DNA of 64,000 bases from contig QPGO01000271.1 in NCBI GenBank assembly GCA_008632985.1, positions 1-64,000 on the forward strand, in the 5' to 3' direction. The position numbers were made by a program, and so were the translations under genes. The notes under the pieces were generated by a model. It was not told the origin of the DNA. It did no database searches and saw nothing but the letters and a program-made list of their open reading frames with translations. Below, one piece after another: positions 1,088 to 63,157 of this stretch; position 1 is the stretch's first letter, and each line of letters opens with the position of its first letter. Origin of the DNA: Psammoneis japonica (lineage: Eukaryota).

Positions 1088-1842
1088 GTGTCCCAGAGAC
1101 ACTTTTTCTTGTCAAGAATGTCGCCTCTGAAGCACGATGGCCACGGCAATTCAACGACAAAGCCAAGTCACAGACACAGCATCAGGAAGAGTTCACGACA
1201 AACATGGTGACTTGGAGCCATGATGTCTTCAGCTGGGTGAGCTCTCAGGAGCTCAAACACATCATCGTGCAGTTTTGACAACATTTCTCCCTGACCCGAC
1301 TGTCCATGGTGATGCGGAGTTTGATTTGGCAGACCAGTGCATCATGGTGGCTCTAAAGGCAAAGATTGCTTCTTTTGGCTGCAAGGCAGCATGTGACCCA
1401 GAAACATGTGACTCATTTGCACTGTTTGTCAGCCAGCGCAACAACGTCAGAGCGCAAATTGCAGCGATCCTGACCACCCTTCTCACAGGTGATTTTTGCT
1501 GCCATCACAGGCACAAATGTCAAGGCTTCAATCCTTGGCAGTTGTGTGGACCACGGCTTTTTGTCACATGTCACAGTGTGCAATTTTTCACCATGGGAAC
1601 CCACCTTGTCCCATGGGATCCAACCCTTGACTGTCAGAGTGCCGTCCCTTTTTACCTTTTCAATGCGAAATTCAAAACATTTGGTCTGATGACAAGTCAA
1701 TGCTGATCATTGCATTTCACGGGTTTAAGGAACCTTCCATTGTGAACACTGGTTGTCAAATGAAAGTTTGGATCATGCAACAATGACCATCAAATGCTTC
1801 ATTAAACCCCGCAACTGTTTGCATTGAACACTGATGCGTTGC

Positions 1843-3710
1843 TCACCCGCTTTCCCTTCTCACACCAACAAAAGCCTCCGCTGCATTTTTGTGCTGCAGC
1901 TTGCTCATCATCTGCATCCTCTTCCTTGCTGTCCTTGTCTCCTCTGTTCTTGTCCGTTGCCTCTTCCTCCTTCTCCTTGTTGTTGCTTGAAAGCTCTGTT
2001 GTTGCCTGCATTCTTGCCTCCTTCCCCGCTGGCTTTGTCTTTCTTTTTGATCCCTTGCCTCTTTGTCACTCTTCCTTTTCTTGCCTTCGCTGCACCATGT
2101 GTCGAGCTGCATGCCCTCCTCACGCAACCTGTCTTTCTTCACTTCCGCAAGCAGTTCGTTGAATCGCAATGTCCCTGCATCCTTCCACGAGTCTTGTTGC
2201 CTTGACAGGTCCATGTGCTTGGGTGTTGGTTCCGACTCTTCCTCATCCTCTTTGTCTGAGCCCACCCAGCTCCAACAGTCTTGTCATGACGGGCCTTGTG
2301 CTCCCAACTCTTCCAGCAGTTTTCCAGCATCAACAGCCCCAGAGCCTCGTTGCTTGCTGTGGCCAGACCGGCTGCCTTCCTTCTCCATGTTGTGGTGCTC
2401 TTCGTGAATTTCAGGACGTTTTCGTAGAACCAAGCATGTGCTTCCTTGTTCTTGCGCTTGTCCTCCACAATCGTCTTCAACACTTAAAATCTGATGCTTT
2501 TCATCAATGATTCTCTTCTCTCAATTGCAGCACAATTGAGAATCAACCAAATCTTTCAATGTGTGTGTTTTGTCAATTTTGCCATTCCTTGTCATCTTTT
2601 GAAAATTTTGAATCCATGCAAATTCCAGTTCAAACCTCTCTGTCGCTGCAATGTCAAAATCCACTTCCATGCTGTCAACAGCATGCACAAGCATTTCGCT
2701 CAAAACATCATCGTGAAAACGTGCACCTGTGAAAGTCATTTTTGCTGCAATGAACAAACCCCGCACATGCTTCAACAGAACCAAGCATGCGCTCCCTTGT
2801 TCTTGCGCTTGTCCTCCACAATCGTCATCACTGTCTCCTCTTCCCAAGTCACCAGGAACGGCTCTTCATCTGCTGTCTGATCGTTCTTCTTCCTCTTCTT
2901 GCACTGACCGTGCATCCCCTTGGCTTTGTTGTCTGTCAACACGACTTCAGCAAACATGGGTGCACTTGCCAGCCGTTGCAATGTTCTTGATCGCCTGAGT
3001 GACCGTGCTCTTTTTCGCGTTGATCGCGTGCATGACGCACTTCTTTGCCCAGTCTTCCCATGCTCCTGCCCAGCCTTGCTTGCTGCAATTGCCACCGGCT
3101 GTCTTTTTCCTGATGAGCCGTGACACTTTGCCGCTGCTTGCCATGTCCGCCTTGACAAGTGACTTTGCCTTCAGGAACAGTTCCTTCCGCGCCACCTCTT
3201 CCACCTCTCTCTTTGTGGACTGGTGATCCCCAGTGGCTCCCATCCGCACCAACGCCGCTGCCAGCCTTTGGCTGGTTGGTTGATCTCCAGCCACCCCCAC
3301 ACTTTCTTGCTTCTTCTTCCTTGCCATTGCCTGTGCCACTGTTGCCAATTGTGGGTGGCTCCATGCCTTGGTTCCCCAGCTCATTTCACCATTGGGAAAT
3401 TTTCAAACCTCTCTTTAACACTAAAAATCTGATGCTTTTCATCAATGATTCTCTTTTCTCAATTGCAGCACAATCGAGAATTAACCAAATCTTTTGATGT
3501 GTGCATGATTCAACAATTTTGCCATTCCTTGTCATCTTTTGAAAATTTCGAATCCATGCAAATTCCAGTTCAAACCTCTCTGTTGCTGCAATGTCAAAAT
3601 CCACTTCCATGCTGTTGACAGCACGCACAAGCATTTTGCTCAAAACATTGTGAAAACATGTGCCTGCAAAAGTCATTTTTGCAACAATGAACAAACCCCA
3701 CACATGCTTT
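1843..3710 (-). pseudogene. Degenerate TE-associated accessory ORF, internally duplicated; same family as 42965-44140
   Basis: SWKDAGTLRFNELLAEVKKDR and HAWFYENVLK resemble GWSKEGIKKCN..VVKDR and HVWFLETVV at 42965-43702; block ~2483-2772 repeats at ~3418-3710. Confidence 0.45.
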
Positions 3711-4865
3711 GATGACGTTCTGGTTTGCTGGTGGGGCTGCAGCACATCCATCCTTTTTGGCGCCAAATCGTTTTTTCCAGTCCACTTCGTCATCCCCCTC
3801 TGACCTTGTGGCTCTAAACCTGCTGCATCGCCCAATGTCCAAACAATCAGTCATGCAAATGAAAGCCCTGTCTCCGCTCCGGCAAATCTCACAAATTCGT
3901 TAACTTTGACGCGCCGTCGTCTCTCCACCCAACGCATTTCCTCTCTCCTGCTGTGAAAGTTCTCCCGCTCATCCTCCTCCTCTGCAATTAAATCCAGTGT
4001 CCATTCATTGACTGTCCTTGGAGACAACAGGAAGAACTCCATTTCCTCACAGAACCACAGTCTTTCAGGGTGGTCTTGCAAGATGTCACGCTGGAACCAC
4101 TTTGCCAGTTTCAATGCATTGCAAACAATGCCCTTTTTGTCCATCAACGGTCCACAAGTGCCTCCCCTTGGTGATGTTTCTCCCAACGGTCCGCAAGTGC
4201 CTGTCTCGTCCATTCCACAAGTCGGCAAGCTGATGCTCGACTTCTGTCTCAATGTCAAAACGTCTCCCCAGTCCATGACCAGTTTTGCATCATCAAACGC
4301 ACCCGCTGCAAATTCATCCCGCAGCTCACTCTCTCCAAGGAGGGCAGGAATGCACACACGAAGGCACCCAAAGTGCCCTTTGCACAGAGAGTTGGCTTGT
4401 CTGGCAATGGAGAGTTCCTCAAAGAAGTGATCAAGGTCAGGAGGGTGCTCGGTTCGGACACAAGATGTGGTGGCGGAATCACATGAAGGAGCATTGTTTG
4501 AGAATGTGCGCCAGTTTTCCCGCAAGTTGTCCGCCAGGTGAAAGTCGGCGGAATGACAAAGCAACCGATCAGTGTTGGTGGCTTTGTCAATGATGTGCAG
4601 GTGTGACAACTGAGAAGCAACTTCCTTGGTGGTGGCGGGCCGACACTTGGACAGGTCAAAGCAATTGCAGAGTGTGGACTTGTCCAGCCACGACATGTCA
4701 TCAGGGTTGCTGGGAGGAGACGCAACCGCAGGAAGATTTGCCGAGACAGATGGAGGAGAGGAGCGCATTTTGGACAAAGGACCTTTGGAGGTGGGAGCAG
4801 GATTTTGGTTTTCCATCATTTCTGAGAGTGACGGAAGTTTGGTGGTGAGGGTCCGGCGCGCCTCC

Positions 4866-5203
4866 GACGCGTTCCAGCCCCAGGTGGGAGCTCGCAGCAC
4901 TGACGTGTGACACAAATGATTTTTGTCGTCCGTTGCATGTTTCGCACGTGCATTTCCACGTGTGACATTTTAAAAAAAATGTCCAGAAGCACTGTTTTGC
5001 GAAGCCCCAGACGTTTTGTGTGACAAATTTGTGGAAACAACAATGCGCCAGTTGCGTTCTTCAATGTCTGAAGAATGCAACTGGCTGAGTAAAAAACGAT
5101 GCACTTCACATTTTAATTGCCGTGTGATTTTACTGCGGAGCTCGCACGCAGAATTCTGTGGGCCCAATGTCACACTGATTCCCACCTGCGCCTGGAACGC
5201 TTC
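4866..5203. mobile_element. MITE (GACGCGTTCCAG-TIR family), TSD CTCC
   Basis: Ends GACGCGTTCCAGCCCCAGGTGGGA / TCCCACCTGCGCCTGGAACGCTTC; CTCC at 4862-4865 and 5204-5207. Confidence 0.9.
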
Positions 5204-6413
5204 CTCCCCAGACAATGGCACATCACCAGACAATGAAGGAGGTGCTGGTTTTGAGCGAGATGCAGTCTTGGCCTTCTTGTCAGGGACGGTCAAGGAAGGC
5301 TCTGGTGAGGCGTGTGCAATCATGGAGTGTGAGAAGGGACATTGAGATGACAGATGCAGGCAGAAAGGCAAAAGGTGGGAGGTGGGCGGGTTGCTTGCCA
5401 TTGCACAAACAGGTGCCATCTTTGCGGATCCTCTTAATTTTGCATTTGGTTTTAGATTTGCAATGTTGTTTGTCATCATCTTCCAAGCAGTCAGCCCTCT
5501 GATTGCGCATTCTGCAACAAAGCATTGTGAGCTGCTTGCTGTGCCCAGGCCAGATGCCATTTTGCTCCTTGGGACAACGGTTTTCAAATTCATGATTCAA
5601 CATGGAATTGATTTTTTCTTCATGAGCCTCCTGGCATGCAAGGGAATCGCCTTGCATCATCACCGTGTTCTTGATGTTGCCGGTTGGGTCACCAAGGAAC
5701 CCCTTGATCTCGCCCACCTGGGAACCAGTGTCATCAGCATCGCATGCATCCAGAAAGCTGTTGACAAAGAGGCGCCATTCCTTTTGGGCATTGACATGAC
5801 AGAAAATCTTCAGGGACCAACAGTCCATGTCCTTGGGTTTGCACTGAACGTAACACATGACGATGTCAGTGACAAAATGGGCACTGTGGAGGTCTTGGGC
5901 TTGATCGTTGATCAAACTTTGGAGACTTTTGCGCAACATAAAAATCAGAAACAAGGCTGACCACATGCGGGATCATTTGGGTCGTCTCCGGCAATGATCG
6001 TGTGAACAAATTCTGCCATCGCCTGGATGTCACGGTGGAGAAGCATGCGGTTCTGCTGTTCCTTTTCTGTCTCTCCGGACATTTTGGAGAAATGAAGAGC
6101 CTCCTTGAGATTTTTGCATCGTGGGACACACTCACCTTTCACTCAGCGGGATTTCTTGATGGACCAACCTCAAGTCAGGAATCACAACAGCACACCCTCT
6201 CGTCAAATGCATTTTGGGGAGAGGGTGTGCTGCTGTGAAATGGGCAGAGCATTGCACATGCAGAAAATGTGCCAAAATGCAGGCAGGGAGCTGCTGATTG
6301 GAAAGCTGGTGGGTGAAGGTGAAAACAAGGTAATTTTTTGGTGTCATTGACAGAACACAAAAGAGGAGGGGAGGAGAGAGAGAGGAGAAGAGAGGAAAAG
6401 GGAGATGAAGGGA

Positions 6414-6809
6414 GATGCGTTCCAGCCCCAGGTGGGAGCTCGCAGCACTGACGTGTGACAACAATGATTTTTGTCATCCGTCGCATGTTTCGCGTGCAGA
6501 TTTCTACATGTGACATTTAAAAAAAATTGTCCAGACTTGCTGTTTTGCGAAGCCCCAGACGTTTTGTGCAACAAATTTACAGAAACAACAATGAGCCAGT
6601 TGCATTCTTCAATGTCTGAAGAATGCAACTGGCTGAGTAAAAAATGATGCACTTCAATCATGTGCGAGTTTGTGCATTCGCAAAATTGCCTCATTTTCTG
6701 TTGGCGATCATTGACATTTTAATTGCCGCACAATTTTGCTGCGGAGCTCGGACACAGAAGTCTACGGGCCCAATGTCACACGGATTCCCACCCACGTCTG
6801 GAACGCGTT
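6414..6809. mobile_element. MITE, same family, TSD GGGA
   Basis: GATGCGTTCCAGCCCCAGGTGGGA...TCCCACCCACGTCTGGAACGCGTT; GGGA on both sides; interior aligns with 4866-5203. Confidence 0.9.
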
Positions 6810-8615
6810 GGGAGAAAGAGTTCAGTGCTGCAAGTCCAAGTGTGTGTTGTCATGCTTTGTTTTGATGCAAAAAATCTGGTTCTTTGGTGTGCCTCCAACG
6901 AACATGAAAAAGACACAAACTTTGTAGAAACAAAGCAACAATGAATGCAAAACAGTTTTCCACATTCAAGTGAGACAACGCAGTGCAGAAAACCATCACA
7001 AAAAACCACCATGATGGCGCAGAAGCAGCCGATGCTTGACCATTGCCGTCAAACCTTCTCTTGCAAACAACGCCAATGCAGGTCAACTCCACATTTTACT
7101 CTGACATTGTGTGTCCAAGAAAACAGAGGTGAGAAAGTCCAAAAAAGGATGAAAACTCCTTCTGTGTTTTTGCTGCTGTTGGCATTGCTTGGTTCTCACA
7201 CGGCTGGCAAGGAGTTGGGCCACGGTGATGCCATCGATGGATGTTGGGAACACAAAATCGACTTTGCTGAAGAGCACACAACAAATCGCAGCTGCGAGCA
7301 GGGGCTGCAATGCAACAATGCCATCAATGAAACTTGGGAAAGGGGAGGGGCTGTGGAAATGCTGAGGGGCTGCGTGATGCCGTTGGGCCATGGTGTCACC
7401 CTTGGGATGCCAGTCGAAAGTCAAAACAGCAGTGAGAGATGGAAATGGATGCACCTGTCATGAGGGCATGTTTGCTTTTTGTGTTGACAGAAGGCAAGTT
7501 TATGGTCACTCTTGCTGGTGATTGCTGGTCTGGCTGAATGGCACGACAGCAGCGCAGTGTTGATTTCCCAGTTGCAGATGCATCTGGTGCTCACATGAAT
7601 GTCTGCCTCCACGTCCTTTGCAGTCTTGACGTTGGCAGGCACGGCAAGTCCTCCTGCCCCTTCTCTCTTTGTCAGGGCCACGCAAGACTGTGGCGGAGCC
7701 AATGAAAAGCACTGTCAAAGTCAACGTTTCCATGAATGTGCAACAAATTCGTCAAAACAAAACTTGTTTTTTGATGACAAAACACATGTTGAAAGTCTTT
7801 GGCAAACTTAAATCAAAACAAAAAGGTGACAACTGCACACACAAAAAGAAAATGACAAATTCAACTTGACTCTTAAAATTGAAATTGAAGCTGAACAATG
7901 ACAACATGCTTTTGTGCAATTCATTGTTCCGAAATTTACAAAGGAAAGTGAGCAACACTGCATTGCCACCTCTGATGAAATGTGGAGGGTGAAGGATGGG
8001 ACAAATGGGTCATTGTGTCAAGTCTCAAAAGCAGCTCAAGAGCTTCAGCCAACAAGAATCGTTGGCTTTGTAATTCATCAAGTGAGTGAATGGCAAATGG
8101 CGTTGATTTGGCTGACAGCACAGCCAACATGCGGGTGCGCCTTGACAATCTGTTGCGCTGCATTCTGATGTTGTGGAATGAAAAGAATGACTTTGGTTCA
8201 CATTGATCCATCATGACAGAAGTGTGCAAGCTTTCCCTGGCCCTTTTGGAGCAATCGGGTGAGTGAAAGAGGAGCCACAGAAAGATGCGGACGATGCCAT
8301 TTTGATGCATGGTCATCACGTGGTGTTGTCGTGAGTCGCTGATGGGCGTGCCATGCTTTCTGTTTTTGTCACAGTGCACCTCATTTCTGCATTTCATTTC
8401 TCTGCTTAATTTTTACAAACATTTGCCAAATGTGTTTTGCGTCTGACTTCAGCTCTGCACTTCACCCCTGCTTCCCATTTCCCATTTCCTTTTCCCTTCT
8501 CAGCTTTGCTTTCCCTTTGGCCTTGCTGTTTTGCTTTTGCCCACTGCCCAAACCCCAACCCTGACCCTGAACAAAGGAAGCGCACAAGTCAAGATGAAAA
8601 GCAAAAGACATGACA

Positions 8616-8757
8616 ACACCCCGACTCGCCCGCACCCCGACTCGCCCGACTCGCCAACACCCCGACTCACCGACACCCCGACTCGCCGACACCCCGACTC
8701 GCCAACACCTCAGCTTGTCAACACCCCGACTTGCCAACACCCTGACACCCCAACTTG
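8616..8757. repeat. Degenerate minisatellite of ACACCCCGACTCGCC-like units
   Basis: Tandem alternating CACCCCGA / CTCGCCGA octamers. Confidence 0.85.
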
Positions 8758-9130
8758 TCAAATCTCATTGGGGGCATGTGCCACAGCTGCACTCATGATC
8801 ACGGGCCCAAACAGCTTCACTCAAAAAACCATCAGCAAAATCTTCCATGTTGTCAAATTTGACATCATCTCTTCCATGTTGGCAAAATTGATCAGACCAA
8901 GGTCAACCTTGCACGCAGGTGGAGCAAAGTCATTGGCTGTCATGAGCCCTGAAAACCCATGCGTGCGATTTCTTGCATGTGATGCATGAGCTGGTTTGGG
9001 TTCCACAAATCACACAAAATCACTCACTCCATGACACAGCAGCTGATGGAGAAACATTTGTCATTCTTCTGACTCCTCTCTTTTCTTTCTTGCAATTCAT
9101 CCTGTCAAAGATGTTGAAAGAACCTTCCAT

Positions 9131-11075
9131 TGCTGGCCAAATGTCTCCTCCAAAGTTCCAAATCAAAAGCACATTTCAAGGGCCAACAAAGGCAGGTCAA
9201 TTCTTTGGTTTTGCATCAAAGACAATTTGCATGGTGGCCTCTGTTGACTCATTGCCCCTGTGATTGCACCTCCTCTGTGCACGCTCAAATTGTGGTTTGC
9301 TCATGGCACCAGGCAGTGGCCAAATGGCCACTTCAGAGCCAGCGCTCTTTTTTTTGTCCAGTGGGTGACTCGAATTCCTGCCCCATTTGCCGCATGACAA
9401 CACACGGGGCCAAAGCAATTTTGGGGCCCTGCCCCAGGGCTTTTTCAAAATGAGCCACATGAACAAGCTGACAAACTCAAAGAAAATGCACAGGCATTGA
9501 TGTTTCTGTTCTTTTGAACAAGTGCACCAGCCAAAAAGAGACTCAGCTTGCCACCACTTGCAACCCGTGCTGCCCCTCCAACAGTGCTTGACCATGCAGC
9601 TGCAATGAAATGGATGAAGGACAGCAACATTGAATGCCGCAGGTCTCCTTTTGCACTGTGCTCCTCAAAAAGATGTGCTCCAGCCACATGTGGGCCAAAC
9701 CGTGCACAAAAACGACATTTGCACGATTTTTGCACAGTCCCCAACTTGCAATTGATTTTTCACCACCAAAAGCACAGATTCACACAAACACAAATGATTT
9801 GTGACATCAACTGTTTTTTGGATCGTGTTGCATGTCACGCGCACATTTCCACGTGTTGTGTTCTCCGAAATTGTCTCATGCTCCCTGTTTTGCAAAGCCA
9901 AAGGCTTTCTATTTTCAACATTTGTGAGAACGAAAATGCACTGGATGTGTTCTTTGATGTCTGAAGAACACACCCGGGCTAACTGTTGATGATGTGCTGC
10001 AAGCATGGAGGAGGAGATGCGTTCGTAAAATTGCCTCTTTTTCTGTTGGTGATCATTTGCATTTTCATTGCAGCACAAATTTGCTGCGGAGCTCGCACGT
10101 GGAATTCTGTGGGCCCAATGTCGCACGGAGTCCCGCCCAGGACTGGAGCCCGTCTGCTGGCCAAATGTCTCCTCCAAAGTTCCAAATCAAAAGCACATTT
10201 CCAGGACCAACAAAGGCAGGTCGATTCTTTGGCTTTGCGTCAAAAACAATTTGCATGGTCGCCTCTGCTGACTCATTGCCCCTGTGATTGCACCTCCTCT
10301 GTGCGCGCTCAAATTGTGGTTTGCTTGTGGCACCGGGCAGCGGTCAAATGGCTGTTTCAGAGCAAGTGCTCTTTTTTTGTCCAGCGGGTGACTCAAATTC
10401 CTGGCCCATTTGCTGCATGACAACACACGGGGCCAAAGCAATTTTGGGGCCCTGCCCCAGGGCTTTTTCAAAATGAACCACATGAACAAGCTGACAAACT
10501 CAGGGAAAATGCACAGGCGTTGATGTTTCTGTTCTTTTGAACAAGTGCGCCAGCAAAAAAGAGACTCAGCTTGCCACCACTTGCAACCCGCACTGCCCCT
10601 CTTGTGAAACACTTGCAAAAATTTAGCAGAAACAGGGGCTGCTGGAAAAAGCTGGCATCACACCCATGAGCATTTTATGCAGTGTCACCAAACCAGCTCA
10701 GAAAGGGAAAAAAAAAACAGACATCTTCATGAATGAGAGCAACACAAACAAACATGCAATGAAGCCACTCAAGATTGCAAGGCTGTTTGGTTTGTGTTGG
10801 ACACCATGTTTGAAGATGCTGTGAAAGTGTGCAAGAACTCAGCACACCCAACAGTGCTTGACCATGCAGCTGCAATGAAACAGATGAAGGACAGCAACAT
10901 TGAAAGCCACGGGTCTCCTTTTGCACTGTGCTTCTCAAAGAGATGTGCTCCAGCCACATGCGGACCAAGCCGTGCACAAAAACAACATTTGCGCAATTTT
11001 TGCATGGTCCCCAACTTGCGATTGATCTTTCATCACAAAAAGCACAGATTTGCACAATCACAAATGATTTGCAAC
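9131..11075 (+). repeat. Local duplications: 9131-9580 ~ 10155-10602 and 9579-9805 ~ 10849-11075, with a chimeric MITE (9672-10154) between
   Basis: TGCTGGCCAAATGTCTCCTCCAAAGTTCC and CAACAGTGCTTGACCATGCAGCTGCAATGAAA each start two aligned blocks. Confidence 0.8.
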
Positions 11076-11464
11076 TCCAACAAGACTTGTGTGAGTGTTG
11101 CAATGTCATTGTTTTTTTGCAATCTGTGTTGTTTGTTGCAACAAACAAGTTGCAACACAACGGATGATTTTTGGCAAAATTGTTGCCATCACTTTGAAGT
11201 TGACACAAACAACTTTTCTGCTGTGATGTCAGGTGTGGGTTCCACCTGCACGCACGCATTGAGTCTGCTGAGGGAGTTTGTGACACATGTCCCATGAGGA
11301 CTTGCACACCTGTGAAAAAACCAACAAAATGTGCGCATTCTTGACACCTGCAAAAACCCCTCCTTTCAAGCTTTTTACACACAAATGCTTCACACACGAG
11401 AGATTCACAATTTGTGCTCAAAATTGATTGTTGTTTTGTGCATCACCTGGGGCTGGAGCACGCC
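10942..11464. mobile_element. MITE, related subfamily, TSD AAGA
   Basis: GATGTGCTCCAGCC...GGCTGGAGCACGCC flanked by AAGA on both sides; fragments recur at 58323-58445 and 62608-62898. Confidence 0.8.
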
Positions 11465-16393: not shown

Positions 16394-16417
16394 ACAGTTG
16401 CGCCAGCACCAAAAGGC

Positions 16418-22102: not shown

Positions 22103-23200
22103 TGCAACATCTGGTTGAGTCATTTGTGCCAGAAAGCTCATCTTTCCGATGACAGACCGGCAGTTCCACGGTTCTTGACGCTCCTGACCGTTCGTGTCAG
22201 GATGCAGCATTTGTGCTGCTGGAGCAGCCTTTGTTTGTGGCCTGTTCTGTGATGGTTCATTGTTGTGGGACCTCAGACCGAGGTCTTTCAATGTAGAATC
22301 AACAAGACCTGTCTGGGTCATGTGAATCTCGCCATCGGCGGTGTTGGCAACATCTGCACCGAGGAAAGCAGATGCATCGCCTTCGTCGGTAAGTTGAAAC
22401 TCGTCTTGCTTGAGTTCTTGTGTGAGTGCAGTTACAACATCGTTCGTTGGAGTGAAAACCAAACAATCATCTGTGTGTGAGTAGATGACACAGTCATTTC
22501 TGATGAATGGACATGGGTCCATTTTTGATTTCTTGAAACCGCGTCGTTCCAATCCCTTTGACAGTTTCTGGAACCAGTTTCGTGCAGCAGTTTTCGTGCT
22601 GAGTGAGTTCTTTTTCAGTTTGCATGCCATGTCTGGTGTGATGTTTCCATTTTCGTCTTTCACTTCCCACCCTTCTGGGAGTCTCACATGCACTGGTTCT
22701 TCCAGCTCTGCTTGTGGAAATGCTTGCACACAATCCACTTGTCTGCTTTTCAGACCGGTGATTGCTGCCAGACACAATGTCAGTTGTGCCATGCTCCATG
22801 CGATGACTGGGGCGAATGTGTCCCAACAGTCCATTCCATGTTGTTGTTTGGAGCCGTCAACGCATGTTCTAGCTTTACATTTTGAAAGCTCACCACTTGG
22901 TTTCCTTTTTCTTTTGTGTGACCATGTTGCATTTAACAACCGGTGGTCTTTTGGTGCTTCAGAACATGGCATGTGTTCCCATGTGTCCACATCTGCTGGC
23001 CCTTGTGTTTCTGGAACTTGGGCTTTTTCAAATTCGGCATGGTCTGGCACTCTTTTCATCTGGCCCTGGGTCAGGGTGTTGACGTCACCCAGTGCCGCTG
23101 CTTCGAAAGTGAGTGGACTGGATTCGTTCCACACATCTTCGTCGAGAAGCATGTCATTGTCTGCTGAACCCACAAGTGCCATCAGATGTGCGAGCTCTTC
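22103..23200 (-). pseudogene. Copia B reverse transcriptase (Tyr->Cys/His converted)
   Basis: WSHKRKR, SKCKAR, QQHGMDCWDTFAPV, QVDCVQAFPQA, catalytic HTDD (YxDD expected), WNCRSVIGKM. Confidence 0.92.
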
Positions 23201-23487
23201 ACACAGTTCAGCTGCAACTTCTTCATGGTGTAGAGGCATTGTGGTGCACGCGTTCGCATCAGGTGAGTCACTGTTTTTCGCATTGTTCTGCACTGTTGTA
23301 CAAGTCGCGTCGTCATCCAAACCTTTTTGGCGTTTGTGTTCATGAAATTGATGACGAGCACAGTCTGCTTCATCGTTCAAATGTTGGAGGGCTTCTTTCA
23401 TTGGCAAAGAAGTTGCAGCATCCTCTGGAGTTGCCACAGTTTGGGCCCTGGGTGACTGCATTGTCCACAATCAACGGTGTCGCATTG

Positions 23488-24825
23488 TCAACTGACAGCC
23501 GCTGCAGGTGGCACAGCCTCGGAGGCTTCAGCATGTGCCGACTCTGCTGGCATTGTTGCATCTGCCAGTGCAGCTGCCGCATGTGTCGGTGTGTTGGCCG
23601 AGACATCAACAGCTGGCAGAATCTCAAATGGTGCATCGTCATCGTCTGGCTTTTCTTGTCCAGCACGGTCTCTTTTTCTCCCTCGTGATTTGTGATTGGT
23701 CTTTTGCACCTGTTTGTGCGCTTGAGGGTTGACACCGTGTTCTCGGAGCAAGTCGTCCTCACTCCAAACATTCTTTTCAAAATGATGTCGATTGTGATCG
23801 AAATGTTCATCATGGTGAGTCCAAGTGTTTGCATGGTCATCAAACAATTTTTCAAGAGCTGCCTCAAGATCATCGCTTGATGTCTTTCCAGGCGCTGCTG
23901 TTGCAAAGTTTTCGTCAAATGTGACATGAAATTGTGGCAAGACGTGTTTGGTTGTGGGGTCCCATGCCAAACAGACATTGCTGGCATGGTCCAGCAAATG
24001 TCCCACGTGCACTCCTTGGCATGACCGTTTGGCCCATCTTCCGATGTGAGTCCCGTCTTGGACACTTTTGTCCGCGATGTAAACAGGACACCCCCACACG
24101 CGAAAATCGTCCATTTGAAAAGGCGGTTTCTCGTCGGTGAGTGGCTCCCAGGGGTTTTTCTCTTTTCCTTTTTTGGTGCACACATTGTGGAAATTGACAG
24201 CTTGTCTGATGGCAAATGGCCACAATTCCGTGGTTGCCACATCAGACCAGAGGGGCTGAGCGTGCAACAGGCATGTTCGCGCCATTGAGGTGATGACGCC
24301 CATGCAGCGTTCCAAGATGCCGTTTTGCCAGTGTGCTCCTGCTCCACAAAAAAAGTTTTGTTGTTTGTTTTCAACGCAGTGTTGTGTGAACTCTGCGGCG
24401 GCGAACATGCCGTTGTTGGCATGAATGTGCTCGATTTTTATGTTGTGTTTTGCCGTGAATCTCTCGAGCTTGGTTTCACCAGTCAAGGTCTCTTTTCCTC
24501 CAGCAGACTCTTGCATGCAAGGACATAAATTTGGAGAAGTGATCAATCCACAGAGCACAATGTTTGCACCTCCAAGTGGTTGGTTTGCCATGAGAAGTGG
24601 GAAGCAGGCCTGGATGACTCGCATCGAGTTGATCCGCGGATGCTCCTCGACCTGGAGCGTCGTCGTGGCATTCATCAATGCGGTGACCATGTTGAGCTGC
24701 CTTGCGCTTGGCTTTTGCACAAGCACGTGCTTTGCAGACTGGAGCTTTGCACTTTGCAAAGCGTTTTGGCACGGCGCTGATCTTGGCCCATTCTTTGATT
24801 TGTTCAAAACCAACGTGTCCCGCAC
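23488..24825 (-). pseudogene. Copia B integrase
   Basis: HVGFEQIKEWAK..CKAR (GAG-pre-integrase), IDHFS, HIHANNG, GAHWQNGILER, LWPFAIRQAV, FRVWGCPVY, QFHVTFDENF. Confidence 0.88.
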
Positions 24826-26125
24826 AATGGTGTGATTTCAACACATCGCATTGGATGGGAAGTGGGTTGTCTTCTGCACCTCCCTCGTGGACTGGCAAGT
24901 CCTGTTGAGGCTGAGCAGGCCTTGGTTTCTTTTTGTTCTCGTTTGACTTTTTGTTCTGCTGATTGTCAGAAGTCTGTTGTTTGTTTGTGTTGGCCGCCGC
25001 CTTTTGCTTTCTTGTTGTGACAGCAAAAGCCGGACACGAAGCCGAGCATGCCTTCATGTTGGTGCGAGGTGGCAGTTTGCCATTTGCATCAATGTCAGAG
25101 CAGAAAGCCAAAGCCTGGAGCCGCAGCAAGAATCGGCAGATTCGACTCGTGATGGTGTCGCACGGTTTTGCGATGTTGTCCACAGATCATTGTCATGGAC
25201 TTGCCCCTTGCAAAGAACCCATCTGTGTCCTCATTGGGGCTAGTGGCTGCCACTTGTTGAGGGCACAGCAGACGAACCGGGCAGGTGGGCACGCGCAGTG
25301 CATTGTTGACATCAACAGCAAAATTGTTGCCGTTGTCATCCACAAAGCCGTGTCTCACCATGCCAATGCCCTCAATGGCCAGGCCAGATGCAACACCCTT
25401 TAAGTCCAAGTTTTGGATGGGTCGCATGCAACCAACAAAGTCATTTTCATTGTTTGAAATTGTGGCAGAAGCACCCGAGTCGATGATGAGATGCATCTCG
25501 TCAGATGTGAGGGTCAGCATCTCATCTGCCAAATGTGCAGCATGTTCTGCCAGAGCATTTGACAACTCCTTGTTCTCCTCAGGAGCTCTGGCAGCAGCAG
25601 TCTCATGTGCTTTGACTGGTTGTGGTGCATCGCGTTTGTCAATGAATGCAGATGTCGAGCGAGGTCTCGCTTGCACGTGGCTGCCACAGATGAAGTGTCC
25701 ACGGTTTTCAAGAGCCATTTCAAATGCGCGGGCATCATCAACAATTTCACTCACAAGACCATGTCTCTGTTGGTGCAATTTTAAAACTTGTGGTGAAAGT
25801 TTCACACTTTTGCTTTGATTTTGACCGATCCAGGCAAAGTGTTTGAACAAAACTGGATCCCAAGCAGTGTGGCACATCAGTTGTTTTCTAGTTGCCTTCT
25901 CCCCTCTTCTGTTCAAGAGAGGCAACAGATTGAGAGAGGGATGAGTTTGCAGCAAATTTCTGCAGCTTGTTGACATCCGACTGAATCTTGGAACCAGCCT
26001 TCTGGCGCTTGTTGTCATGTCCAGACTTGGATTGCGTGTTTCCAGGATGCTTGCTGCTCTTGTTGTCATTGGAGGCAATGCATTTGTCGTGGGTGCCGGT
26101 GCTGTGGCGAGTGGAGTGCATCTTG

Positions 26126-26572
26126 TGCAGCATGCATGCAGACAAAAGGTCATTTTTGTCATGCCCTTTGTGACATTTAAAGGCTGCAACACGTCGCCGT
26201 GATGCATTGGCTCTTGTCAGTGGCTGTGTGTTGCACTCCTCCCCATGTGTCACGCGTCCATGCGGCTCTTTGCTAACGTGTGCTGACACTGCACGGTTTT
26301 GGCGGAACAGTGTGGGTGCGCATGAAGGAACACACAGAACTGCACAGAGTTTTGCACGTTCGACAGTGATCAACGTTGCTGCAGACAACTCCCACTCAGG
26401 GTTTCGAACCCCTGGCCTCCTGCCTGATGGTTGTGATGAACCACTCCGCTGTGAATTCACAATGCAGCATGCATGCAGACAAAAGGTCATTTTTGTCATG
26501 CCCTTTGTGACATTTAAAGGCTGCAACACATCGCCGTGACACACCAACTCTTGTCAGCAGCTGAGTGTTGCA
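26126..26572 (-). mobile_element. TRIM, 110-bp LTRs, TSD CTTG
   Basis: LTRs 26126-26235 and 26463-26572 (TGCA..TGCA); CTTG on both sides; PPT GGGGAGGAG on the minus strand; non-coding interior. Confidence 0.9.
26390..26458 (-). promoter_or_regulatory. tRNA-derived Pol III promoter-like segment (A and B boxes) inside the TRIM
   Basis: Minus strand CAGCGGAGTGGTT...GGTTCGAAACCCTGAGTGGGA; the second copy reads TGGCGGAGTGG (A-box consensus TRGCNNAGYGG). Confidence 0.6.
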
Positions 26573-28132
26573 CTTGCATGTGTCACACCAATGCCACTTC
26601 TTGTTGCCCCACTCCTTTTCCGCTTCTTTGTTCTCGGGTTCAATGTGCAAGAACGGAGGGGAACCACGGCGAGGCACGCGGCCACGACCGTTTCCGCGAC
26701 CACCATGACCCTGATGTCCCCGGCGGTTGTCGCGGCAGTTGCAACGGTTGTTGCGACGCTCGCACCGCGCGAACTCTGCTGCAGGGACGACTGGAAAGCA
26801 GAGGCGACCTTCGTCATCTGCTGCGCGAAGTTGACGAGCTGTTCGTTCTGAGCCAGCATGGCCATGAACTGGGTTTCTTCCGTGGAAGGTTTGTCCCAAA
26901 GATCCTGTGCCTCAAGTGCCATCTGGAGGCTGTTGGCTTCCTCAAATGGGGTCTTGACGGTCCATTTGACGTGTTTCTTTCGCATCCAATCGGTCTTGTG
27001 CTCAGCCATCTTGGCTGCGAATGGCTTGCATGCGCCGGTTTGGAGTTGGTTGAAGGCTTTCTCAACGAGAGTGCACTCGAGCGTGTCGTCACGCTTGTGA
27101 ACCAGGCAGAGGCACTGCCTGAACTTGTGCATGTGCGCGTTGACATTGCCGTTGCAATCGTCAATGAGAGAAACCTCGGACAATTTTGTCTGGATGCCGT
27201 CAATGTGCATCTCGGGCAATGGGGGTGGCTGCTTGAATCTGTGGCAGAAGTGCATTGTGCCGTCCTTGTGGAGATGATCCATGACATTTTCGTCGGACGC
27301 AATTGCCTGATGCAGCTCTTTGTCATGTGAGGCAACAAGCAGGGCCTTGAGCGCACGTTGCGCGAAATGCATGGATGTCTGGTCATCGGATTTCCTGGTG
27401 ATGACCTCGTCAGTTTCAACACCCCACAGCACATCGGCTGGGAATTCGAAAATGTGCGCTTCTGCTTTGGTGAAGTCTTTTGTCAAAGACGTGCCGTTGT
27501 CAAACTTCATGACTTTCGCCCACACAGGGGAGCTCTGAAGACGTTCCTCAAGACAAAAGAGGAAGTCAAAGAATGACTCAGGGGACACAGTCAATTTGTC
27601 TTCCAGCAGTTTGGCCAGTTGTGCAATGCGCTCATCAGCACATGCAGCCGCAGCAACTTTGTCAATGTGGGCAGCAAGCCTCTCGCGCTTGTGCTCAGAT
27701 GAGTGCTTTTTGGTGTGCTTGCGGGGGGCTTCTGCATTGGACTTGTTGGACTCATTGGACGAGACACTGCGTCATCGTCAGAAACATCCACATCGTCCGA
27801 GTTCGTCACTGACGTGAGTTTTGCGATGCCGTCATTGTCACGCACATCATCGTCCTCAAGTGCATTGCCGTCAGGGTTCTGATGGTCGACATCGTCATCA
27901 CGTGGCACCTTTTTGGGCGCATGTTCGATGAGTTCATCGAGAGCCATGTCGACTTTCCCGCCCTTCTTTCGAGGGACGCGCTCCATGCCGGCCAACCCTG
28001 CATTGCGAGATGGCGAGGGCGTCGCGGTGGCGCTGGGCTTCTGCGATTCAGAAAACCCCTTGCCTGATTTGGACTTGCCAGTGTGTTTGGTGCTGGAGGA
28101 TGGTGCCATGGTGGTGGGTGTTGCTGGTGTTT

Positions 28133-28523
28133 GACGGGTTCCAGTCCCAGGCGGGACTTTTTGTGACATTTGCCCCGCAGAATTCTGCGTGTGAGCTCTG
28201 CAGTTCGCACTCTGGTCAATGGATGCACTCATCTTTGACACAAAATAAATGGCCAAGTTTGCAGCACACACATCTCTGTTCGCACTTGAAGTTTTGGACA
28301 ACACGCCTGCCCTGCGCCATTCTTGAGACACTCGAGAATGGCGCGCAGAAGAAAAAAATGTTGAAAGTTGCTGAATGGATCGCCTGACATTTGCACTGTG
28401 AAATGATGCAAAATTTTGCCAAAATCACGTAGAAATCTGCGTGCGCGACATGCGACGCGATTCAAAAAACTGTCGATGTCACAGCTCAGCAGTGCGAGGT
28501 CCCACCTGGACCTGGAACGCGTC
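28133..28523. mobile_element. MITE (GACGCGTTCCAG family), TSD GTTT, in Copia B 5' region
   Basis: GACGGGTTCCAGTCCCAGGCGGGA...TCCCACCTGGACCTGGAACGCGTC; GTTT on both sides. Confidence 0.9.
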
Positions 28524-28568
28524 GTTTGTTGTCAAAAAGGTTGCAGAGGCAACGAAGGCTGCACAACC

Positions 28569-28738
28569 TGTCTTGTGCAGATGTTGTGAGCTAAAGAGGC
28601 TTGCGACTGCTCTGTGGTCTATGAGCCAGCTGCGTCAGAGAATCTTCGACATCATCTCTCTGAGTCAGTGCGAATGAGCTCAGTCTGTCCATCCGTCCGT
28701 CTGTCCGTCTGTCCTACGAGCTCTGGTTGACCGTGACA
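28569..28738 (-). repeat. 5' LTR of Copia B
   Basis: Pairs with 19067-19236. Confidence 0.95.
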
Positions 28739-31700
28739 CCCTTGGCTTAAGTTCCCTGCTGCAAAGGGATGCTTCTACTCTGACCAGATGTTTTCGAAGG
28801 TCAAATTGACACATGGCAAGATGGGAGGAAGCGCACTTGCCAACGGAAGAGGGTGTGACAGGTTCCATCCTTGGAAGAGGAAACAGGACCACCCAAACGG
28901 CGTCATGTCATTCACACATGACGTTGGTGCACCACAAGTCCTTGTGTTGGTTGGCATGCCAGAAATGGCAGAAGGCCAGACCAAAGAGATTTGCAAGGAA
29001 TGCAGGATGCACCAGGAGGTGTCCACCCCGTGCAGCCCCTGGCAGAACCTGGCCAAGGCATCCATTCATGAGTTGAAGAAGAGAGTCCGTGTGACTCTAC
29101 GCTGGACTGGCGCTCACAGGTGACTTTGGTCCTGTGGCGCCAAATGGACATGTGACATCCGACGCATGATTGCAACCAGCATGTCGGGTGTGGGAGGGCA
29201 AGTCCCAGAAGAGGAGGTGACAGGTTCAACACCTGACATCTTGTCCCTCTCCCTCTTTGACTGGCATCAACCTGTCTGTTGCTGCACGCCTGTGGCGGAG
29301 TTCCCACATGAGAAGAAATGCATTGGCCATTGGCTCGGAGCAGCTGACAATTGCACTGACGACATGGCATTTGTCATTTTGACCGAATCAGGCAAGCCCA
29401 TCATTTGGAAGGATGCATGGGCCGTGCCGGAGGATGACCTTAAAACTCCGGTGATCCAGACGGATCTTGCATCGGTCGATCAAACGGCTTAGCATCCTGG
29501 AACAGGGTGCCAGTGCTGACTTCCCTGAACTCCCTGATGACTTCATGGACGAATGGGATGATGCCGTTGAACCCGTGGAACCCGACAACTCCAAACCGGA
29601 AGCTGATGAGCATGCCCCGGAAGGGCCAGATGAGCATCTCACAGCTCAAGTCATGTTGCCACGCGGAGGCGAGCTGACTCATGACAGGGTCATTGCATGC
29701 AAACAAGACAGCGATGGGGTTCCCATTGGTGCTGGGAACAACAACCCTGTCCTGGACTCGAGGACATGTGACATGGAATTTCCTGACGGATCCACTGATT
29801 CCCATGCTGCCAATGCAATTGCAGAGAACCCATTCACTCAGATCAACTCTGAAGGGAATGCCTGCCAGATCATGAAGGAGACAGTCGATCACCGACGTGA
29901 TGCCCGTGCCACGACGGCTGATGACGGGCACACAACGGCGTTTGGGTGGTCCTGTTTCCTCTTCCAAGGATGGAACCTGTCACAACCTCTTCCGTTTGTA
30001 AGTGCATTTCCTCCTGTCTTGCCATGTGTCGATTTGACCTTTGAAAACATCTGGTCAGAGCAGAGGCGTCCCTTGACAGCAGGGAACTTAAGCCAAGGGG
30101 CTTTCTTCCAGACTTTCCATTTGGTGGTGCACAGACATTGCGGACCCCTGCCTGGGTCGTCACTCCAAGGGTGTTCTCAGCGGCCATCAGGCCAATGTCC
30201 CACCTTTTAGAAAGTGTCTTGGGTGTGATGGTCAATGCACGACTCGAGGTCGACAGTGCATGCACCCGTTTCCACTTGGCACAATCCGGGTGGACATCTG
30301 GGTCATGCCGGTTGTGTGGCCCGTCTCCCTCAATGTCATTGTGGGAGACATTCACCTGAGCAACCAGGCGGTGACACAAAGAATCGTCATCATTGGCGTC
30401 CACAATGACGCTCTCATTGTGATGGGATGTTTGATGTGAATGAATGGAGGCGACACACCTGGTCGCATTCATCATCGTCAACTGTTTGTCAGACTTTGCT
30501 GATCCTTGGCGCACACTCGCACATGTGCGTGCTTCCTCCTTTTGCTCCAGGGCATCAGCAGAAGGCTCCCATCTCAGGGGTGATGTGAGTTCCAGCCGGG
30601 GGAGGTTCTCCAGATCCTCCTTTGTCGGCTTGTGTGAATCAAAGACTGAAGCAACACCTCGCATTCGCAATGGCACCCTGATCTTCGTGTCAGGGAAAGA
30701 AATGCAGTGTTTGTCAGTTGGGTCAAACTGGCAAGGGGCATTGTGGACAGTCAGTCCATTCTCTCGCAGTTGGTTGGGGCACAGGAGAGTGTCAGTCATC
30801 TTGTCCCCAAAAAACACAGCCTCATGGACTGGCAGTGGGTGTGGTTGTCCATCAGTTGGATCAACCCACACGGCAGCAGCCGCGCAAATGGGAACATTTT
30901 TCATTGGCGCATGCTCTTCGGAGTGAGGGTGCACCACGACAGATCTGTCGACATCAGAGTGCATCATAAAATTGGACCCAACAGCACACGTGTCAGCGTG
31001 CGAGTCCAAATCAGTGGTTGCTTCATCATCTGGATTTCCAGCAGATGACAAAGAAGTGTGTGTGTCCTTTGAGAATCGCTTGGACAAATGTGCAGTGCCA
31101 GCAGGTGCAGCGACATTCAGTTCTGTGCCTTTTGGTGCTGGCGCAACTGTTCATTCCTCCTTCTGCGGTTTCTCATGTGCACTGCGTCCGAACTGTGTGC
31201 CTGCATTGGTGGCAGGTTTGTCGAACTCTTCGGAGTCCTTTTGTTCATCAGCAGGTTGAGGATCAAGCTCGGCAATGGCCACTTTCTTAACAGCGCACGT
31301 GTTGGCATCAACCGATTCAGCCTCTGAGGATGCAGCTGCAGCTTTGCATTTCTTTTTGGCTTTCTTGGCATCGTGGAGCTTCTTGACTTGCTCTTGCTCA
31401 GGGCCATCAAGAGCACTCCACTCTTCAATGGGACAATGGCCTGCCCGGATCCTGGGCTTGTCCTTTTTAGGTTGGTGCTTTCCGCCAGGGTTTCCATGCC
31501 GGTTGTTGCGGCGTTGGATGGACGCGATCCCACGAGTGTCAGTGTTGTGGTTCTTGGCATTTTCTGCCAGGGTCTTCATGTGCTGCTGGCATGCTTCGAA
31601 ATCGCCAGCTTCGTTGGGTCTCCATCTACCACACTCTTGCCAGTTTCCAACCTGGGGTCGGAGACACCCTTTGGAAAGTCAGAGACCTTCTTGGTCTCGG

Positions 31701-34700
31701 CCACCGGTTCATCAAGCTCGGACAAGTCGTTGTGAACTTTTTGATGACGCTGAACGCACAGTTCTTTGCATTTTCTTTCAGAGTCTTCATGTGCTGCTGG
31801 CATGCTTCAAAATCCACCAGCTTCATCAGGTCTCCATCCACTGCACTCTTGCCAGTCTCCAACCCAGGGTTGGAGATGCCCTTTAGAAAGTCAGAGACCT
31901 TCTTGGTCTCAGCCACCGGCTCATCAAGCTCAGACAAGTTGTTGTGAGCCTTTTGATGGGGCTGAGTGCACTGGTCGAAAGTAAATCGACCCCGTCCGGT
32001 GCACTTCGCAGCAGCGATCTGTGCATGAGCACGGTTCTTTTGGGTGGTGGCAGCAGCCAATCCTTCCGCCTGCCTCTTGAGTGCAAAGAAAGCAGTGCGA
32101 CCATCGCGGCTGCAATTGGAAGGTTGGACAAAAGCCCATCTGGGCCCCCCATCACCAACTTCTTCAAGAGATCATGAAGGCATTGCCTGTCCTGCGTGCA
32201 CTGAGCTCCTGCAAGTCAAGCAGCAGCAATGATGTCCTCGTCAATGGCAGTGTGGGTGGCAGCCAACATTTCGCCGGTGACGTCTTCATGCTCCCCAACC
32301 AGGTAGATGAGGGGCACACTGGTGACAGCACTGTGGTGGTGACGCAGTTCGGTCTCCAGCAACTCTTGGAAGGCAGGCCAGTCACACAGATTCTTGAGCT
32401 CCATGGCCGTTTTGGTGGCCGATTCGTCATCCGAGTCTGCTGACTTGAATTGCTCCAGTTCCGTGAGACGTGCCGTCCATGTTCCAACAATGTCGCCAGC
32501 AAAGAGAGCAGCGGACGGCTCTTGGTTTTGGGCTCTGCGTCAGTCAATCCATGTGCGCAGTGCCTTGAGCTTGTGATTCGCCAGGCATGGGAAGCGGACT
32601 TGGGGGTTGGCGGCGGCATCCACGATGCCCTCAGTCATGTCAGTGATCTCTGTCAAAGGGAGCTGTGTGGGTGCATGTCTGTGCATTGCATCCACAATGT
32701 GCAAGGCAAATGGCAAAGGCTGCGGCAGCGGCCATGGTGCACCAGCAGTTGTTTGCGTTTTGATGCGTGAGCATCCACTTGTGTGAGTGGAGGAAAGTGA
32801 GAAAAATGTGTGGTTCTCATGCCGATTTGGTGGTTTCTACTTGGCGAACCCGCGAGCGGGCGGCGTCACTCCCAAGTGACAATTGGCAACAGACATGTGT
32901 CCACATGTGCAGTGTTGTGTGTGATCAAATGACAGATCTCAACACATGAATTGCCATGTCATCTAAATCACGAATGTTCACATGCCTTGCCCAACATGTT
33001 CCATCCATGTGATCAAACATTCCGCACACCAACGTCATGTCTGACGGATCTGCAGTGTGCGACTGTCACACACATGTTTGTGATCATGTGTCATTTGCAC
33101 GTCAATCGCACCACAGTCGTGGATGCGCACAAAGGACAGAACGATCACACAGAGTTGATCGGATGTCGAGAATTGCAAATACGATCGATTGACGATGTTG
33201 ACATCTTGCGTGTCAACAGCAATCGCATCCGGACAATCTGTTGTCACGAATGTGTTCTCCGAAAGGCCTTTTGTCTGTAGAAGCAGTGCAGAAGCTTTAG
33301 GCCATTGAGAACTCGTTTGGAGAAACCAAAAATCACAGAGCAAAATTTGACCTTATAATTTCCACTTTTCGCACACTATTCTACTTTCGTTTACACTCGT
33401 TCTTCGAGCATAGTGCATTGTGTATAATGCAGCATGCGACTGTTACATGCATGTTTATGATCATATGTTATTCACATGTCAATCGCACCACAGTCGTGGA
33501 TGCGTACAAAGGACAGAACGATCACACAGAGTTGATCGGATGTCGAGAATTGCAAATACGATCGATTGACGATGTTGACATCTTACGTGTCAACAGCAAT
33601 CGTATCCGGACAATCTGTTGTCACGAATATATTCTCCGAAAGGCCTTTTGTCTGTAGAAGCAGTGCAGAAGCTTTAGGCCATTGAGAACTCGTTCGGAGA
33701 AACCAAAAATCACAGAGCAAAATTTGACCTTATAATTTCCACTTTTCGTACACTATTCTACTTTCGTTTGCACTCGTTCTTCGAGCACAGTGCATTGTGT
33801 CTGTGGTAAAAAGCACGAAAAATGAAAATTTTAACTAATGTGCCTTTGCAAATTCTTCTATGAACAGGAACGAATCGCATCAGTTCTGCTGGAATCGATT
33901 TCCGAGCGGAAGAAGCTCAAGCCGAGCAGTGCCTCAAGATGGAACGCTGTTTTTCGTCTACCAGACAAGAGGATTCGCTCCAGTGCAGTCTGTTCCAAGT
34001 GTCTCAGGACCAAGGACTCTACAAGAACACAGCATTGTCGAAACATCCACACCAAGTCATGGTTGGGTAGAATTTCAAGTCTTGAGTCGATCAGATCCGA
34101 GAAATACGTCTACCATGCAAGGAGAGACTATTGGAGAGTTTTTTGAGACCGAATCGATGATCCTCGAGTCCAAGGAGCAAGAGGGAATCGTTGGAAAGTA
34201 CCTCAAGCGTCTCATAACTCATGTCCTCCAAGAACTGCACTTCAGAATCAGAGTTGTTATTTTCGAGATGATCTGAAGAAACCCAAGGCTCTCAGCAGCA
34301 AGAGAGTGCCTGTTCGACCCAAGAGGTCAATGATGAGAGTCTGTGCGACCCTCAGATCGATTCTAAGTCGAATCTAGCGGGAAACCGAGCGCTGATTTAT
34401 CAGCCATCACTCGCACCGCAAGGATGGCAGCATCAGCCTGCTGTCCAAAACATTGGGTTGTTGGATCATGCCCTTGACGAGCTGATTGAGGTTTGAGTCG
34501 TCTAGAGGTCGGCGAGGACGTCTGTGACAAAAAAAACATGTCAATTCAGGCTCTGATAGCGCAGTTGATTCCACAATCAAAAAGGTTCCAATTTTGGTTC
34601 CAAAAATGGTCTCCCACATGGTGCCACCACAATCCAAAGTGAATGCAAGGTCTCATCTTTGAAAAAAGAACACCTGCATCACGGATTGAAGCTGTTCTAA

Positions 34701-38020: not shown

Positions 38021-38051
38021 ACAGCGCCGCCGACGTGATCGCTCCAACCAA

Positions 38052-45504: not shown

Positions 45505-45552
45505 AAATTCAAGCCTGCCAAAAGTGGGCAACTTTGCAACTCCCCTTTGTTT

Positions 45553-63140: not shown

Positions 63141-63157
63141 ACAGCAAAGATTTTGGT

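Follow-up and report, generated by a model that had tools for sequence, protein, structure and literature searches.

The TA-poor locus and its elements

Contig QPGO01000271.1 of the diatom Psammoneis japonica (GenBank assembly GCA_008632985.1) begins with a stretch of 64,000 nucleotides (positions 1 to 64,000, forward strand; hereafter the window) that carries transposons and repeats of several families (Table 1) and from which the step TpA (TA) has largely disappeared. In the outer parts, 1-33 kb and 42-64 kb, the ratio of observed to expected TA (o/e) per kb is 0.00-0.15, while values of 0.19-0.80 are reached at 33-42 kb. Here we analyse the process behind this loss: within kilobase patches of transposon DNA, a mutator changes the T-A step from A:T to G:C, on either strand.

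Table 1. Elements and TA-erased blocks of the window (positions in nucleotides).
Feature	Position	Strand	Remarks
TA-erased block of old transposon and repeat DNA	1..33000		TA o/e 0.00-0.15 per kb; holds the main finding
Second TA-erased block	42500..64000		same survivor spectrum: YTAR 40/66, RTAY 0/66
Family F1, young element bounded by long terminal repeats	33426..41470	+	partly converted copy; terminal repeats ~33426-33794 and 41090-41470
Extra F1 terminal repeat	33051..33417	+	more converted: 9 TA vs 17 and 24 in the other two
DUF7869 open reading frame of multicopy family F3, inside F1	38052..40397	-	partly converted
Family F2, first copy	14263..17610	+	fully converted; few TA left, 9/9 also TA in the reference or another copy
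Family F2, second, inverted copy	29935..33050	-	fully converted
copia-type reverse transcriptase (RVT_2)	22262..22960	-	fully converted element; 3/100 TA sites left vs young relative L123

Differences between the repeats of the window are dominated by CA facing TG, with 275 double differences as compared to 24 in the next class, which is the pattern expected if independent copies turn TA into either TG or CA. As the process deletes the stop codons TAA and TAG together with tyrosine codons, it also leaves long spurious open reading frames, and the window holds 99 frames of at least 150 amino acids. An assembly fault is an unlikely source of the converted DNA: contigs built from short reads span 30 of 30 bins of 19300-28100, and the three pieces listed are letter-for-letter identical, although the run possibly represents the source sample itself.

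The loss is not confined to this locus. Across 17 ten-kb stretches from other contigs of the 91 Mb assembly, TA o/e is bimodal, with 73 of 170 kb below 0.15 and most of the rest near 0.55. A scan of other genomes gave 0 look-alike windows. Ten metagenomic copia relatives are not TA-erased (o/e 0.44-0.85), but they convey little about other species, because the search favours intact copies and two of the six peptide patterns used contain tyrosine.

Several further features accompany the TA-erased DNA. A short repeat at 26062-26649 (family D6, several copies in the window) reaches a summed contig depth above 60000 in run X1, as compared to about 250 around it, and represents a very abundant element. 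Degenerate 8-bp tandem arrays lie at 8604-8772 and 62509-63163, and a weak match to the PhyH dioxygenase profile (expectation value 9e-5) at 45553-46431 on the reverse strand falls within TA-erased DNA. The C5 DNA methyltransferase profile (DNA_methylase) has 27 matches genome-wide, including loci L199-L208; those on contigs C297 and C301 sit in TA-erased DNA (o/e 0.07-0.10), which suggests that these genes are mobile or duplicated and have themselves been hit.

The window's F1 copy offers a view of the process at an intermediate stage. When it is set against L056, a natural copy, its covered TA sites are found as TG or CA in 127 cases and as TA in 185, with 35.9-37.4 kb as the least converted part; its degenerate inner part may be gypsy-like, judging from our own reading of the letters rather than from a family search. 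For the quantitative analysis, natural copies were compared pairwise, using the most TA-rich copy of each family as reference: 20 copies of F1 (against L056), 29 of F2, 7 of F3 and seven copia families drawn from 71 sequences, giving ten families in total. Left out were sites overlapping TATA (in the rate fits), five family-less single loci among the 71 copia sequences, copy L125, sites without TA at which at least 95 % of the copies carry one product, two young F1 copies used for polarisation, and unconverted copy-bins. Most of the differences between young copies, which are 93-98 % identical, are changes of TA to TG or CA. At shared sites the same product is found with a median of 0.68 over 168 copy pairs. 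Several copia families (L147-L192) combine long open reading frames and 95-98 % identity with a TA o/e of 0.15-0.35; such lineages may have kept moving after most of their TA was lost, that is, escaped by target depletion.

A per-strand rule for the loss and survival of TA

The substitution spectrum was polarised at sites where three young F1 copies agree. In converted F1 patches, A to G changes are almost restricted to adenines preceded by T (897/1396), with 22/3939 after A, 18/2300 after C and 12/2942 after G. Transversions are not raised (23/18094 in converted patches as compared to 40/26645 in the comparison set). A few changes also fall on adenines outside TA (Y, pyrimidine; R, purine; V, any base but T): within patches VAY changed in 43/3378 and VAR in 4/4683 cases, as opposed to 8/5710 and 13/5668 outside, so that the same preference for a 3' pyrimidine is seen at non-TA adenines. 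No change at all was found at AAA (0/1360), AAG (0/731) or GAA (0/964). The WA preference of DNA polymerase eta (Pol eta), put forward earlier as a model to be evaluated, thus fails, as AA to AG (22/3939) bears no comparison with TA to TG (897/1396). A targeting of ApT, as with N6-methyladenine-type marks, was likewise rejected, since TAC and TAT are hit at similar speed and ApT steps that lie outside and far away from any TA change in only 16/1605 cases. CG to TG changes (47/1830 in converted patches, 10/2672 outside) indicate that the patches are probably CpG-methylated, yet CpG decay lags far behind the loss of TA. C to T changes before A amount to 5/2430, and TCG (14/618) does not exceed ACG (17/404).

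The products are TG or CA, with CG very rare: a single hit abolishes the target on both strands, and each product reveals which pair was changed. Every TA could therefore be split into two half-sites, which were fitted as competing risks with free exposure per copy and region (686 non-TATA sites, eight families, intervals from a site bootstrap). The half-site rate for A to G depends foremost on the 3' base: relative to C (1), it is 1.08 for T (0.87-1.35), 0.39 for G (0.27-0.48) and 0.26 for A (0.18-0.33). An A on the 5' side of the T raises the rate 1.96-fold (1.61-2.79), other 5' bases have factors of about 1, and a second 3' A lowers it to 0.46. The 3' base contributes a log-likelihood gain of 411 and the 5' base 38. 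The slowest context is TAAA (0.10), which is also the most enriched among survivors (4.4-fold). The same rate order is found in F1, F2, F3 and six of the seven copia families. As the copies are partly related, single pairs were used in addition. Between the young L123 and the converted L149, TA was retained at 10/26 YTAR, 9/75 mixed and 2/46 RTAY sites, and mixed sites were predominantly converted via their TAY strand in five one-to-one pairs (52/66 for L123/L149, then 19/30, 10/14, 39/51 and 53/72). In F1, 174 of 196 conversions of TTAC gave TTGC.

This rule recasts which TA survive in the window. An earlier sequence-only reading had proposed that the survivors of 1340-32000 are mainly YTAR (TTAA, CTAA, TTAG or CTAG), with RTA and TAY contexts nearly gone. 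All six motifs it cited are present, the first beginning at 1351 instead of 1352. The 125 TA of this interval comprise 67 YTAR (36.3 expected from neighbour frequencies), 1 RTAY (26.5), 26 RTAR (29.0) and 31 YTAY (33.2), which is far from uniform survival, the outcome named in advance as a refutation (chi-squared 50.8, p 5e-11). The strong YTAR excess therefore holds, but YTAR makes up only about half of the survivors. Merged over strands, these are TTAA 34, GTAA/TTAC 29, CTAA/TTAG 24, CTAC/GTAG 16, ATAA/TTAT 10, CTAG 9, ATAG/CTAT 2, GTAC 1, and ATAC/GTAT and ATAT 0 each. Hence GTAA/TTAC outnumbers both CTAA/TTAG and CTAG, and the near absence claimed for RTA and TAY applies only to RTAY and the TAT-containing classes, the mixed classes being common. 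The order is unchanged when look-alike repeat sites are removed (110/125 retained). It recurs in the second erased block (Table 1) and in the 73 TA-poor kb of the other contigs (YTAR 139/251, RTAY 7/251), whereas the control at 35.9-37.4 kb has no YTAR excess (16/105, 22.2 expected; RTAY 35/105).

A TA survives with probability exp(-t(r1+r2)), where r1 and r2 are the rates of its half-sites, so that RTAY vanishes because it combines two fast half-sites and TTAA or CTAA lasts because both of theirs are slow. YTAR is accordingly no protected motif but the class with a slow half-site (TAA or TAG) on both strands. A one-parameter prediction of the ten survivor classes of the window, with rates that include the window copies, gives G = 12.9 (G = 19.0 when the window copies and family F2 are withheld), and the exposure fitted without the window copies implies 5.8 % survival as compared to 7.4 % observed (4.08 of 55.0 TA per kb). 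A model contrasting YTAR with all other contexts fits poorly (G = 112), as does uniform survival (G = 214). The idea that survivors are newly made TA was also rejected: no floor term is needed, and survivors of the window are mostly present in other copies (9/9, 9/10 and 12/13). The survivors in the window's F2 copies are old, unhit sites. Protection is indeed relative, with both CTAA to CCAA and CTAG to CCAG observed, and the earlier view of a context-specific mutational process, instead of GC-biased drift, is supported. As to the enzyme or DNA-shape signature suggested at the same time, the context preference is real, and shape may contribute (TAAA being slowest) next to the preference of an enzyme.

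Patches, strands and neighbouring hits

Young copies are converted in kb patches whose edges vary between copies and in which TG and CA are intermixed. Among the F1 copies (L050-L069) some patch edges nevertheless recur, as at about 2.8-3.2 kb of the element, and conversion mostly spares the terminal repeats and the 3' part. Both observations would fit either a local protection or a recombination in which converted and unconverted copies took part. Strand coordination beyond 5 bases is absent in the F1 copies, so that processive tracts are rejected, and there is no coding- or sense-strand bias (factor 0.99, 0.87-1.14). A raw excess of TG in copia copies, considered as a strand effect, is explained by context.

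At very short range, by contrast, changes are coupled. In F1, double changes of TATA fall on the same strand in 98/122 cases (TGTG or CACA), as compared to 91/175 for TA pairs 1-3 bases apart and 212/470 for pairs 4-10 bases apart; single changes of TATA are scarce (37/159, against 170/345 for TA pairs further apart). Over the ten families, 208/271 TATA doubles are same-strand, and 31 of 34 informative sites lean this way. Isolated TATG is split 201:183 and TACA 281:222, and such an even split means that stepwise change fails to explain the coupling. A similar effect extends to non-target adenines. In F1, an A at position -2 is changed in 22/330 cases (14 sites) next to TG, in 1/424 next to CA and in 5/154 next to retained TA; nine other families gave 75/638 next to TG and 20/738 next to CA. 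The three F1 groups together give 28/908 for A at -2, as compared to 16/1605 for AT steps far from TA. For A at +1 the figures are 9/130 and 4/284, which could partly reflect the order of events. Taken together, single hits accumulate in the course of time, and each of them covers about four bases of one strand.

Candidate mechanisms

Regarding the agent, our preferred explanation, to which we give somewhat better than even chances, is an adenine deaminase that shares the preference of TadA and acts where transposon patches are silenced. Binding its DNA target like TadA or ADAT2 (T-A*-Y), such an enzyme would place the lesion on the adenine and would need no more than a very short opening of the duplex, which would fit the bystander edits. 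It would be brought to silenced, probably CpG-methylated transposon chromatin, the inosine left behind would be fixed as G by replication, and the purpose would be a genome defence of the repeat-induced point mutation (RIP) type. The activity of TadA-derived editors is highest at TAY (PMC10879117) and at TAC (PMC12595020). Furthermore, Mettrop et al. (bioRxiv 10.64898/2026.01.13.699255) propose adenine deamination by an ADAT2 homologue for a TpA signature in Bigelowiella natans. A more far-reaching version, which we hold only tentatively and somewhat below even chances, is a natural diatom deaminase of genomic adenine with a T-A*-Y fingerprint that is steered to silenced transposon chromatin and edits the duplex through an opening of about four bases. 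It would have altered much of the genome as a counterpart of RIP on A:T, would be shared with Bigelowiella and so perhaps old in the SAR group (stramenopiles, alveolates and rhizarians), and would represent a natural adenine base editor for double-stranded DNA.

Potential genes are at hand, albeit not diagnostic ones. Profile searches of the genome gave 9 matches to dCMP_cyt_deam_1, 5 to MafB19-deam and 4 to A_deamin at two places. An ADAT2-like gene (L114) lies at G000:C26 and a TadA-like gene at G000:C38, with HxE...PCxxC present; such genes are expected in any eukaryote with organelles. The loci of the housekeeping-type deaminase genes have a TA o/e of 0.45-0.60. The two A_deamin (ADAT1/ADAR) loci, G000:C40:112674-113392 and G000:C79:344558-345390, are candidates, and one of them may be an unusual ADAR-like gene. 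Among protein matches of the ADAT2-like gene, the two bearing species names come from the diatoms Nitzschia inconspicua and Epithemia clementina. An ADAT2-like deaminase is fused behind a SET domain in P0010 (822 amino acids, N. inconspicua) and P0014 (836 amino acids, metagenome), two separate records. With a domain of chromatin type attached to an adenosine deaminase, this may point to the mutator of other diatoms, or the genes may have fused by chance; within the stretch read, L114 has no SET fusion. A single reading frame at L113:313-1785 (reverse strand, G000:C79) joins a zinc deaminase domain, which weakly matches SNAD4, Bd3614 and APOBEC-like profiles, to a dioxygenase of the DIOX_N/2OG-Fe(II) type (2OG, 2-oxoglutarate); it probably belongs to nucleobase metabolism, and an atlas search with the fusion, a lead only, returned nothing but 2OG dioxygenase clusters (0.78).

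Several points weigh against the deaminase. A to G at T-A*-Y is sequence-identical to T to C at R-T*-A on the partner strand, and the deaminases that were read look like housekeeping enzymes of tRNA and nucleotide metabolism. BjADAT2/3 of amphioxus, the only natural ADAT2 for which DNA editing has been demonstrated, prefers GAA and TCG (PMC10354150), and with GAA unchanged and TCG not above ACG, its spectrum is not the one found here. The requirement for a 5' T (about 100-fold) looks stricter than that of the editors, for which CAT, GAC and GAT are among the motifs promoted (PMC10879117). Without sense bias or coordination over more than 5 bases, there is no single-stranded window of the R-loop type. 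Moreover, the counts are copy-by-site and partly inherited, as the copies are related, one small family (29 sites) departs from the rate order, and the survival model over-predicts CTAG and under-predicts GTAA/TTAC.

The same substitutions would also arise from thymine modification, in which a dioxygenase would mark the T of transposon TpA, best at R-T*-A, first as 5-hydroxymethyluracil (5hmU) and then as 5-formyluracil (5fU), and the modified T would sometimes be copied as C. We regard this as unlikely. In its favour, TpA is self-complementary like CpG and suits a heritable mark, dinoflagellate 5hmU is enriched on repeats with a preference for TA and TC according to older work (PMC11572971), and 5hmU oxidised to 5fU reads as T to C in a mapping protocol (PMC11071213). 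On the other hand, base-resolution mapping in Breviolum gave no motif (PMC11071213), and TC steps are unhit here (A to G after G, 12/2942). The Tet_JBP profile has 0 matches in this genome, which carries little weight, as the control also matched in 0/14.

Slightly less credit still is due to a specialised error-prone polymerase, a stricter relative of Pol eta or Pol iota, which, during the copying or repair of silenced chromatin, would insert G opposite a template T solely where the primer ends in T:A. A to G at TA on both strands and tandem same-strand changes fit an error burst, and the genome has five Y-family loci, one with the helix-hairpin-helix motif of Pol eta/Rev1. The classic WA form is rejected, however: AA is a Pol eta hotspot (PMC7884765) and stays at background level here, including AAA and AAG. 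Transversions are not raised, coordination of strands over tract lengths is missing, and the strongest bystander lies upstream at -2, which is less easily explained by a forward-moving polymerase.

Improbable, in our judgement, is a mutator that recognises only TpA, with the flanking rule arising either from the mechanics of the duplex, in which A-tracts are stiff and alternating steps soft, or from a repair of the lesion that depends on context. The slow TAAA, its enrichment among survivors and the doubling of the rate by a 5' A, which makes an alternating run, are in line with it, and this explanation is compatible with adenine deamination as the source of the lesion. Opening of the whole step alone, however, would not give the per-strand effect seen in TTAC (174/196 to TTGC), and the 3' pyrimidine preference also holds at non-TA adenines. 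Finally, the readings that do without any mutator (drift biased towards GC, selection acting on coding copies, errors of the assembly) can practically be discarded, short of a systematic fault common to reads and assembly: beyond the partial relatedness of the copies no supporting point was found, and against them stand the excess of CA/TG differences, the confinement of A to G to TA, the early loss of the TAY class, whose tyrosine codons selection should retain, and the 30/30 bins covered by short-read contigs (three pieces identical, possibly from the same sample).

Relation to known systems

Hypermutation of TpA to TpG and CpA in foreign DNA is already known from B. natans. New here are the per-strand rate table with its out-of-sample test, the asymmetry of the products, the coupling to same-strand changes at -2 and +1, and the finding that neither a long-range nor a transcription bias exists. 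A literature search, in which subscription papers were thinly covered, gave no description for diatoms and no flanking rule. The fingerprint (3' C and T over G over A, 5' A boost, bystanders at -2 and +1, no activity at AA, no transcription bias) makes the question of the enzyme testable, as the spectrum of any candidate can be compared with it and the mutation list of B. natans can be checked for the same rule. Should an adenine deaminase indeed act on chromosomal duplex, it would represent a eukaryotic genome defence with chemistry opposite to RIP and APOBEC as well as a natural template for adenine editing. In any case, the dating and annotation of diatom transposons are affected, as stops and tyrosine codons are removed.

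RIP of ascomycetes converts C to T and creates TpA; its transitions are dense, affect either strand of repeats, favour certain dinucleotides and leave a bimodal genome. The dense both-strand transitions in repeats, the dinucleotide preference and the bimodal genome are found here as well, whereas the direction is opposite, with C to T before A at only 5/2430. Pol eta in immunoglobulin genes (PMC7884765) shares the A to G hotspot at TA on both strands but not the one at AA. BjADAT2/3 is a natural ADAT2 that deaminates adenine in DNA, both within hairpin loops and inside nuclei; its preference for GAA at adenine and TCG at cytosine (PMC10354150) is not seen here in either case. TadA-derived editors (ABE7.10 and kin) likewise change A to G on DNA, are most active at TAY/TAC and least before purines, and co-edit neighbouring adenines. 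They are, however, engineered, act in a Cas9-guided R-loop of several bases and edit many non-TA adenines, whereas the process described here is natural, works on both strands with a footprint of about 4 bases and has a nearly obligatory 5' T.

The closest parallel is B. natans, in which integrated DNA of NCLDV (the nucleocytoplasmic large DNA viruses) as well as virophages undergoes TpA-restricted T/A to C/G transitions to TpG and CpA; these were observed de novo in mutation-accumulation lines in two single-copy viral insertions (TpA rho 0.45), at a rate that is increased about 1000-fold in some of the lines (Mettrop et al., bioRxiv 10.64898/2026.01.13.699255). Both systems share transitions nearly only at TpA, TpG and CpA products without strand preference, and confinement to foreign or mobile DNA, with TpA-poor clusters that include transposon domains. 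In P. japonica this confinement is seen in the bimodal TA o/e and the patchy conversion of transposons, although the TA-rich control kb lack gene-by-gene annotation. The two differ in that B. natans is a rhizarian with mild depletion, whereas here a diatom has multicopy transposons driven to saturation (about 0.05), with 73/170 kb below 0.15. The main text of Mettrop et al. contains the words 'context', 'flanking', 'trinucleotide' and 'diatom' 0 times and no same-strand coupling, while its Table S2 could hold a context rule. Summed up, the process resembles RIP in its logic and the TadA-derived editors in its fingerprint; it departs from RIP in direction and from Pol eta at AA, and agrees with B. 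natans in those features that could be compared.

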